Positions 12,960 through 13,620 of a DNA stretch of 64,000 nt are shown in pieces. Every line of letters starts with the position of its first letter. Positions within the stretch are counted from its first letter, which is position 1. The stretch lies in assembly GCF_016903815.1 (NCBI RefSeq), contig NZ_CP069973.1; one strand, 5' to 3'. The translations under genes and the position numbers were made by a program. This DNA comes from Escherichia coli. Lineage in GTDB: Bacteria; Pseudomonadota; Gammaproteobacteria; Enterobacterales; Enterobacteriaceae. The notes beneath the pieces are model-generated. The model was not told where the DNA came from. It saw only the letters and a list, made by a program, of their open reading frames with translations, and ran no database searches.

Positions 12960-13373
12960 TCATCTTGATCTTTGCGTCTCTTGTTGCAACAAAATCCGCC
13001 GTAAATCCCGCCATTCGGCTTCGTCCATGCTGTCGGCTGCCAGCCATAAATGTTGCCGTTTACCGCTATCAGAACGTAAACGCAGCATCATGCCGCTCTT
13101 AATCATCCACGGCGCTTTGACGATGCTCCACTCCTGCCCTTGCCAACGCAAACGCCCGTCCATCAACAGGCGAATTTCCCCCTGGCGAGCATTAATGCGC
13201 CGCTGGCTGCGAACGCAATCAAACACCACCAGCGAAAGTAACACCATCCATAACGGGGTGTAACTGAGCGGCCAGGGCATGAGTAAAATAACAGCGGCAA
13301 CCAGCCCATGAAGCAGCAAGGAAAGCCACTGCGCGCGCCAGGAGACGCGCAAATCAGATTGCCACAGGACCAC
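12960..13373 (-). CDS. ygfX: Inner-membrane toxin CptA (YgfX) of the CptAB toxin-antitoxin pair
   Basis: 137-aa ORF with two hydrophobic helices ([21 protein letters not shown] / [11 protein letters not shown]); overlaps sdhE stop by 20 nt. Confidence 0.85.
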
Positions 13374-13620
13374 GTTCCCGGTTCCGTGTCTGGATGAGTC
13401 GGACCATCATTTCCAATTCTGCATCGGCCGGTTTACCGTGATTCATCAGCCAGTTGAACAGGTCTGGATCGTCACATTCCAGCAGACGAATAAAGATGCG
13501 TTTTTCGTCATCGCTTAAGCTGTCATACTCATGTTCGAAAAACGGCATGATTGAAATATCGAGTTCGCGCATACCACGGCGGCATGCCCAATGAATGCGG
13601 GCTTTGTTGTTAATGTCCAT
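13354..13620 (-). CDS. sdhE: FAD assembly factor SdhE (YgfY/CptB), antitoxin of CptA
   Basis: 88-aa [65 protein letters not shown]... conserved RGxxE motif of SdhE family. Confidence 0.9.

Follow-up and report, generated by a model that had tools for sequence, protein, structure and literature searches.

The sdhE–ygfX gene pair of Escherichia coli, also known as ygfY–ygfX or cptB–cptA, raises the question of whether two overlapping genes, one for a respiratory assembly factor and the other for a small membrane protein, make up a toxin–antitoxin (TA) module or a core housekeeping operon, and what their overlap is for. We examined the pair at positions 12,960 to 13,620 of a stretch of 64,000 nucleotides (nt) of E. 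coli contig NZ_CP069973.1 (assembly GCF_016903815.1), which is referred to here as the window. The pair is a chromosomal, vertically inherited bicistronic operon of E. coli that was already known and annotated, and the identities of its genes and their overlap are virtually certain. We further consider it fairly probable that this is a core operon in which initiation of ygfX is coupled to sdhE, that YgfX is a membrane partner of SdhE, and that the toxicity of YgfX arises from overexpression. The additions made here are modest: the invariance of the overlap, a constraint upstream of it acting at the RNA level, a register between the sdhE stop codon and YgfX W4 that is held in distant lineages, a model of YgfX with a putative PH-like domain, and genomic evidence against typical TA behavior.

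The reading frames, the sequence, and the RefSeq annotation agree on the 20-nt minus-strand overlap of an 88-amino acid sdhE and a 137-amino acid ygfX that a first, sequence-only reading of the window had described. RefSeq gives the same gene coordinates and the same overlap in strain 222, which is 100% identical in this region, and in K-12, and names the genes of the locus fldB, ygfX, sdhE, and ygfZ in both. The identities proposed for the two genes are likewise borne out. SdhE matches the Sdh5 family (PF03937) over residues 7–79 (90.8 bits, cut-off 27, E 5e-26) and the NCBIfam equivalog NF008130, ‘FAD assembly factor SdhE’ (198.4 bits, cut-off 120). Among solved E. coli structures, SdhE matches 1X6I/1X6J, 6C12 (in complex with SdhA), and 6B58 (in complex with FrdA). 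The match is almost perfect across the whole protein for the chains 1X6I and 6C12 (E ≤ 4e-58; residues 1–88 and 2–88) and covers residues 6–84 for 6B58, with E values from 8e-59 to 2e-51 over these three. The RGxxE motif, whose role has been described (PMC8621075), is formed by residues 15–19 (R-G-M-R-E), and the protein is identical to K-12 SdhE (WP_000354046.1). Earlier work has established SdhE as an Sdh5/SDHAF2-type assembly factor for flavin adenine dinucleotide (FAD) that promotes covalent attachment of the flavin to SdhA and FrdA, and this half of the function first assigned to it stands. The C-terminal tail lies outside the Sdh5 domain: the Pfam match runs no further than residue 79, and a Vibrio homologue is similar only up to residue 80. 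The gene is under strong constraint, with a ratio of nonsynonymous to synonymous substitution rates (dN/dS) of 0.025 and dS between genera of at least 1 outside the junction with ygfX. At a single locus (L063, Enterobacter sp. EA-1, CP025776.1), the sdhE match stops short of the expected ATG, with 82% identity over a partial alignment, so that the 5' end of the gene may be damaged or wrongly sequenced.

YgfX matches PF07254 (Cpta_toxin, DUF1434) over residues 2–131, covering positions 1–132 of the 133 in the profile (168.4 bits, cut-off 27.3, E 1e-49). No NCBIfam model matches YgfX, and no relative of it was found among solved structures. The family is small, comprising 134 clusters at 50% identity in a whole-library HMMER search. 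The ygfX gene has a dN/dS of ~0.08, and as in sdhE, dS between genera reaches at least 1 away from the junction. The length of 137 amino acids holds for this strain and is not general: the K-12 stop codon TAA is TCA here, which adds two codons (Ser-Arg) before a TGA, so that YgfX has 137 amino acids as compared with 135 in K-12. The two proteins also differ by the substitutions I21L and G104S. Natural lengths across genera range from 132 to 140 amino acids. RefSeq holds shorter entries, of 49, 113, 115, and 125 amino acids as compared with 140 in Edwardsiella tarda (cluster P0147) and of 111 and 115 as compared with 133 in Pantoea (cluster P0219). The short forms could be genuine truncations or the result of differently called starts, and they bear on whether ygfX is ever lost from genomes that retain sdhE.

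The ygfX frame is +1 relative to that of sdhE, and the GTG start of ygfX falls within the final seven sdhE codons. A YgfX search over one genome per GTDB species yielded 80 Enterobacteriaceae loci, in which YgfX is 72–99% identical. The sequence-only reading had proposed checking whether the overlap is conserved in other Enterobacteriaceae, and we found an overlap of 20 nt, a GTG start, and a TGA stop in all 80 species. The ygfX gene is intact in each of them (132–140 amino acids). Open reading frames (ORFs) of 177–321 amino acids called for ygfX in three species were rejected as artefacts of ORF extension, the true lengths being 135–136 amino acids. The conservation of the overlap is far beyond chance.

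The arrangement reaches well past these species. Seven distant YgfX homologues (23–49% identity), carriers of which include Leminorella grimontii, Pantoea phytobeneficialis, and an unclassified Enterobacteriaceae bacterium (LUAb1), are all encoded directly 3' of an overlapping Sdh5 gene, with overlaps of 14–29 nt as called. The divergent ygfZ gene (YgfZ_barrel) is also kept at all seven distant loci (L083–L090, where the flank suffices). With E. coli counted, the sdhE stop codon ends exactly 8 nt past the codon aligned with YgfX W4 in seven of eight lineages, despite divergence of the nucleotides themselves. That this register is held while the nucleotides have diverged argues that the overlap is ancestral to the pair and has been maintained. 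Fusion proteins of Sdh5 and Cpta_toxin are found in public assemblies (P0003, P0004, P0007, P0013, and P0018). A programmed frameshift joining SdhE to YgfX was considered and rejected, as the fusions, of 166–217 amino acids, are singletons or near-singletons, and the deletion or frameshift that joins the genes differs from one to the next. Errors of sequencing or assembly, or sporadic lesions, would seem to account for them.

The overlap is part of a near-invariant junction block that extends upstream of the ygfX start codon. We determined synonymous codon entropy over 74 complete sdhE genes and compared groups of codons by the Mann–Whitney test. Codons 2–77 have a mean entropy of 1.12 bits, with arginine codons at 1.1–1.4 bits, whereas codons 78–82 have entropies of only 0–0.36 bits (p = 1.3e-4) and the overlap codons 83–88 are almost invariant (p = 3.8e-5). 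The codon for T78 is ACA in 70 of the 74 genes and that for N80 is AAT in 69; the arginines use CGG in 74 of 74 (R79) and 71 of 74 (R81). Variation returns immediately after the sdhE stop codon, where YgfX codon 8 uses five leucine codons. Within the overlap, the freeze follows from the +1 relationship of the frames, since the wobble position of sdhE is the second codon position of ygfX and the wobble position of ygfX is the first codon position of sdhE. Dual coding is insufficient to explain the 16 nt 5' of the GTG, because these bases encode SdhE alone. This segment contains two elements that resemble a Shine-Dalgarno (SD) sequence, GGA at 13385–13383 (−12 to −10 relative to the GTG) and GGGA at 13379–13376 (−6 to −3). 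We infer that ribosomes bind this segment, which lies within sdhE, to initiate ygfX. As the frozen stretch falls outside the Sdh5 domain, the sequence of the SdhE tail appears to be dictated mainly by the needs of ygfX initiation and of the YgfX N-terminus.

These observations lend better support to translational coupling than the overlap on which the idea was first based, and the translation of sdhE and ygfX is probably coupled. In the mechanism we propose, sdhE codons 78–88 would double as the initiation region of ygfX, supplying a weak GGA, the GTG, and the codons of an N-terminal strand. Ribosomes completing sdhE would then unmask the weak GTG site of ygfX or re-initiate at it. YgfX would thus be made only from mRNAs on which sdhE is being translated, and its amount relative to SdhE would be fixed and probably sub-stoichiometric. 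A consensus RNA hairpin predicted at the junction offers a hypothetical basis for coupling through unwinding by the ribosome. In this prediction, 99.6% of cells are paired, and variable sites preserve pairing or lie in the loop or a bulge.

To describe the product of ygfX, we obtained an AlphaFold2 model from 39 diverse homologues, with a mean pLDDT of 93.8. The N-terminal part of the model consists of a β-strand (residues 2–8) followed by two helices (12–31 and 36–62) that form a membrane hairpin. The C-terminal part has six strands within residues 65–112 and a helix at 118–136. The two-helix membrane protein originally proposed is thus recovered in a high-confidence model, and YgfX is confidently predicted to be an inner-membrane protein composed of a two-helix hairpin and a cytoplasmic β-sandwich, the latter putatively PH-like. 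In the model, the first strand of this sandwich is encoded by the sdhE/ygfX overlap and lies N-terminal to the transmembrane hairpin. This placement of the first sandwich strand at the extreme N-terminus, before the hairpin, distinguishes YgfX from PH-like and bPH proteins. No bPH Pfam family matched the YgfX sequence even at E ≤ 10, and a Foldseek search with the model returned nothing significant. Residues W4, Q5, L8, R9, and S11 are conserved across the family.

The genomic distribution of the pair is that of a core locus. Of the 5426 complete E. coli genomes searched by megablast with positions 12300–14000, 5425 carry it, and the median copy number is one. Its synteny is fixed from Escherichia to Pantoea. 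Records labelled as plasmid (12) or phage (2) that carry ygfX (H13–H24) were rejected as evidence of mobility: they are mislabelled chromosomes or chromosomal fragments, including ‘plasmids’ of 4.8–5.4 Mb, and no genuine mobile copy was found among those inspected or sized. A 51-kb ‘plasmid’ (L092, NZ_CP114989.1) contains the full chromosomal neighborhood bglA–trhA–ygfZ–sdhE–ygfX–fldB–xerD–dsbC–recJ. A housekeeping operon fits this near-universal single copy, fixed synteny, purifying selection, and lack of genuine plasmid or phage copies better than an addiction module does. Two individual loci are unusual. In E. coli FXCREC180 (L091, NZ_CP196031.1), a rearrangement breakpoint lies directly past the ygfX stop codon; sdhE and ygfX are intact, and a prophage integrase/excisionase and an ompW fragment take the place of fldB beside ygfX. 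A record titled ‘Chryseobacterium sp. 18061’ (L078, CACSKA010000005.1) carries an Enterobacteriaceae-type ygfZ–sdhE–ygfX–fldB locus with a YgfX 76% identical to that of E. coli, and is probably a mislabel or contamination.

A number of points weigh against reading the pair as a core operon with coupled ygfX initiation and a nontoxic YgfX. The 80 species were collected through a search with YgfX, so that cases of ygfX loss would be invisible among them. The SD-like element of ygfX is weak. The predicted junction hairpin shows no compensatory changes, its local fold is close to that of shuffled sequences (z = −0.36), and it was not recovered in most of the distant lineages. In E. coli, overexpression of YgfX is reported to inhibit growth, to alter cell shape, and to inhibit the polymerization of FtsZ and MreB, effects that YgfY relieves (Masuda 2012, as cited in PMC3985639); the overexpression result stands unrefuted in this species. 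TA-like behavior of a CptBA-like pair has been reported in Acinetobacter, in a study that never considers the function of SdhE (PMC8132199). Lastly, a protective gene in first position and a short overlap are typical of TA operons, and the pair does consist of two adjacent, overlapping genes on the same strand, as a TA pair should. The points from overexpression onward, together with the Pfam description of PF07254 as ‘membrane-bound toxin component of toxin-antitoxin system,’ speak for a genuine type IV system (CptB–CptA), in which native YgfX blocks the polymerization of FtsZ and MreB and arrests division, and SdhE moonlights as an antitoxin that protects the cytoskeleton. We consider this unlikely. 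A type IV antitoxin works on the target of its toxin and makes no contact with the toxin itself. The direct interaction reported between SdhE and YgfX (PMC3985639, PMC5042078) conflicts with this definition. No TA phenotype was detected in Serratia by the Fineran laboratory (PMC3985639). The Shewanella pair fails all TA criteria: its YgfX is non-toxic, no interaction with FtsZ, MreB, or YgfY was seen, co-expression of YgfY worsens growth, and a ΔygfYX strain behaves like ΔygfY (PMC8621075). Loss of ygfY leaves E. coli viable; the one phenotype reported for the mutant concerns succinate dehydrogenase (SDH), whose activity is lost, with no growth on succinate (PMC5293155). SdhE homologues function without YgfX in α- and β-proteobacteria and in mitochondria according to the literature, and the YgfX family is a small one. 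Furthermore, the patchiness, mobility, and paralogous copies that are customary for TA pairs, though not strictly defining, are not seen for sdhE–ygfX, which is single-copy, core, and syntenic, has dN/dS below 0.1 in both genes, and does not occur on genuine plasmids or phages. PADLOC defense models had no match at the locus. The Keio ΔygfY allele, which by design leaves just the final 21 nt of sdhE, keeps the ygfX GTG but lacks the block 5' of it and is therefore no clean test of the TA claim. The TA label is contested and is not the established fact that it had been taken for; the claim of a toxin with a moonlighting antitoxin depends on overexpression in E. coli and was not reproduced in Serratia or Shewanella.

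Two further alternatives concern the junction. The overlap might carry no regulatory meaning, with ygfX translated independently and the conserved block reflecting two proteins that constrain their shared bases. Purifying selection on both peptides would indeed freeze every base of the overlap, and in the model the fold of YgfX relies on its N-terminal strand. However, dual coding leaves the 16 nt 5' of the GTG unexplained, along with the near-fixed synonymous sites of T78, R79, N80, and R81, and the SdhE tail lies beyond the conserved Sdh5 domain. Independent translation is accordingly an improbable account of the junction, more so than the TA explanation is of the pair. The other alternative is that the ygfX start is misannotated and that the true start is the TTG of codon 8 (13352–13350), one base past the sdhE stop codon, in which case there would be no overlap. 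In the window, a TTG does sit 1 nt after the sdhE TGA. Across 74 species, though, codon 8 is TTA, CTG, CTT, CTA, or CTC, and only in E. coli and E. albertii could it serve as a start, whereas the GTG is present in all 80 species. Residues 2–7 are conserved, are covered by the Pfam profile, which begins at residue 2, and fall within the modelled β-strand. For these reasons the GTG is taken as the real start and the TTG was rejected, its chance of being the start being very slight.

The pair can be compared with several characterized systems. The K-12 pair (b2897–b2896) is the same locus, 98.6% identical over a 1.7-kb region, with the same SdhE, 20-nt overlap, GTG start, and neighbors fldB and ygfZ; the differences noted are those in YgfX (the TAA to TCA change, I21L, and G104S). 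Co-transcription of sdhE and ygfX has been shown in both Serratia (PMC5042078) and Shewanella (PMC8621075). In Serratia sp. ATCC 39006, SdhE flavinylates SDH and fumarate reductase, and the membrane protein YgfX binds SdhE (PMC5042078, PMC3985639). The Serratia operon affects the production of prodigiosin, and its regulation by RsmA, RsmC, and FlhDC has been shown in Serratia. Eukaryotic and α- and β-proteobacterial Sdh5/SDHAF2/SdhE proteins share the PF03937 fold, the RGxxE motif, and the covalent attachment of FAD to the flavoproteins of complex II. These lineages lack a YgfX partner (literature), and E. coli SdhE differs in having an additional tail (residues 80–88), which carries the putative ygfX initiation region. 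CbtA systems are multi-copy, reside on cryptic prophages, and have a soluble toxin. CbtA/CbeA (YeeV/YeeU), the archetypal type IV TA system of E. coli, resembles sdhE–ygfX in its two-gene operon and in its claimed targets, FtsZ and MreB (PMC8621075). The sdhE–ygfX pair is instead a syntenic core locus in single copy, its YgfX is a membrane protein, and the two systems have no protein family in common.

Within the preferred reading, YgfX would not be an addiction-type toxin but a membrane protein, particular to this lineage, that serves SdhE as an adaptor or regulator, and its toxicity would be an effect of overexpression. A bolder version joins the structural model to the junction: YgfX would be a nontoxic, PH-like receptor, anchored in the inner membrane, on which SdhE docks, and the 37-nt junction would be a hairpin-gated device that fixes the ratio of SdhE to YgfX. 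We put this forward tentatively, as a possibility that is somewhat doubtful in this combined form. If true, YgfX would either supply the flavinylation factor or hold it back at the point where SdhA and FrdA meet their membrane anchors, and the CptA/CptB entries in TA databases and Pfam would be a misclassified assembly module for respiratory complexes. The locus also serves as a caution. TA surveys and the Pfam name ‘Cpta_toxin’ have spread a TA label for a core operon under purifying selection, in which the upstream gene has a well-proven housekeeping role and for which the toxin phenotype has not been reproduced in two other genera. The invariant overlap, the 16 nt constrained at the RNA level, and the overlap-encoded strand of the putative PH-like domain provide handles on the role of YgfX and on how its synthesis is tied to SdhE.

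Table. Positions of the sdhE–ygfX genes, their junction, and flanking features in the window.
Feature	Position	Strand	Description	Basis
sdhE (ygfY/cptB) coding sequence	13354..13620	minus	ATG start, 88 amino acids, TGA stop at 13356–13354	ORF list, RefSeq
ygfX (cptA) coding sequence	12960..13373	minus	GTG start at 13373–13371, 137 amino acids	ORF list, RefSeq
sdhE/ygfX dual-coding overlap	13354..13373	minus	20 nt; SdhE tail (R)GPVAI-stop and YgfX M-V-L-W-Q-S-D	
Junction block	13353..13389	minus	37 nt, near-invariant, ACACGGAAYCGGGAWCGTGGTCCWGTGGCAATCTGAT	Alignment of 77 sequences
Segment 5' of the ygfX GTG	13389–13374	minus	16 nt, ACACGGAAYCGGGAWC; codes for SdhE only	
Predicted RNA hairpin at the junction	13363..13388	minus	9 pairs; would occlude the GGA and some of the GUG	RNAalifold consensus
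sdhE Shine-Dalgarno sequence, AGGAAG	13624..13629	minus	3 nt 5' of the ATG; partly conserved	78 aligned upstream regions
Candidate −10 hexamer of the putative sdhE–ygfX promoter, TACAAT	13656..13661	minus	In conserved block AAAAACACGTTACAATAG	78 upstream regions
fldB	12405..12926	plus	Flavodoxin 2; convergent with ygfX, 33 nt between stop codons	
Hairpin with U-rich tail	12933..12962	plus	GC-rich, UGACGGC…GCCGUCA, then the U-rich tail; fills the fldB–ygfX gap	
ygfZ	13863..14843	plus	Divergent from sdhE across a 242-nt spacer	

The surroundings of the pair depart in one respect from the initial description, in which the pair was placed downstream of fldB: fldB is convergent with ygfX. The divergent orientation of sdhE and ygfZ was correctly described. 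Upstream of sdhE, no good −35 element was found for the candidate sdhE–ygfX promoter, and a scan for consensus σ70 promoters found none for sdhE on the minus strand. The sdhE–ygfZ spacer contains two further blocks conserved among ~78 Enterobacteriaceae upstream regions, CAATGCAAGTGCTTTCAC and ATTCCCGTAAAAG (~13790–13805 and 13678–13690), at which regulators of the two divergent promoters, of sdhE and ygfZ, might bind. An Rfam scan of 11000–16000 returned nothing relevant to sdhE–ygfX, and antisense ORFs within the region had no Pfam match.

In this strain, the stop codon of ygfX falls within the hairpin in the gap between fldB and ygfX. Folding of 12915–12990 gave z = −4.06 for the plus strand and −1.97 for the minus strand, which is without a U tract. 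The hairpin looks like the terminator of fldB, because the U-rich tail follows it on the plus strand. On the other side of the locus, directly after ygfZ (14830–14903 of the window), the sequence resembles the REP-derived naRNA4 family, though weakly and below the threshold. The spacer between ygfZ and trhA (~14844–14919) is ~119 bp shorter than in K-12 (end of trhA at locus position 4121 as compared with 4240), a difference that probably reflects the copy number of REP elements.

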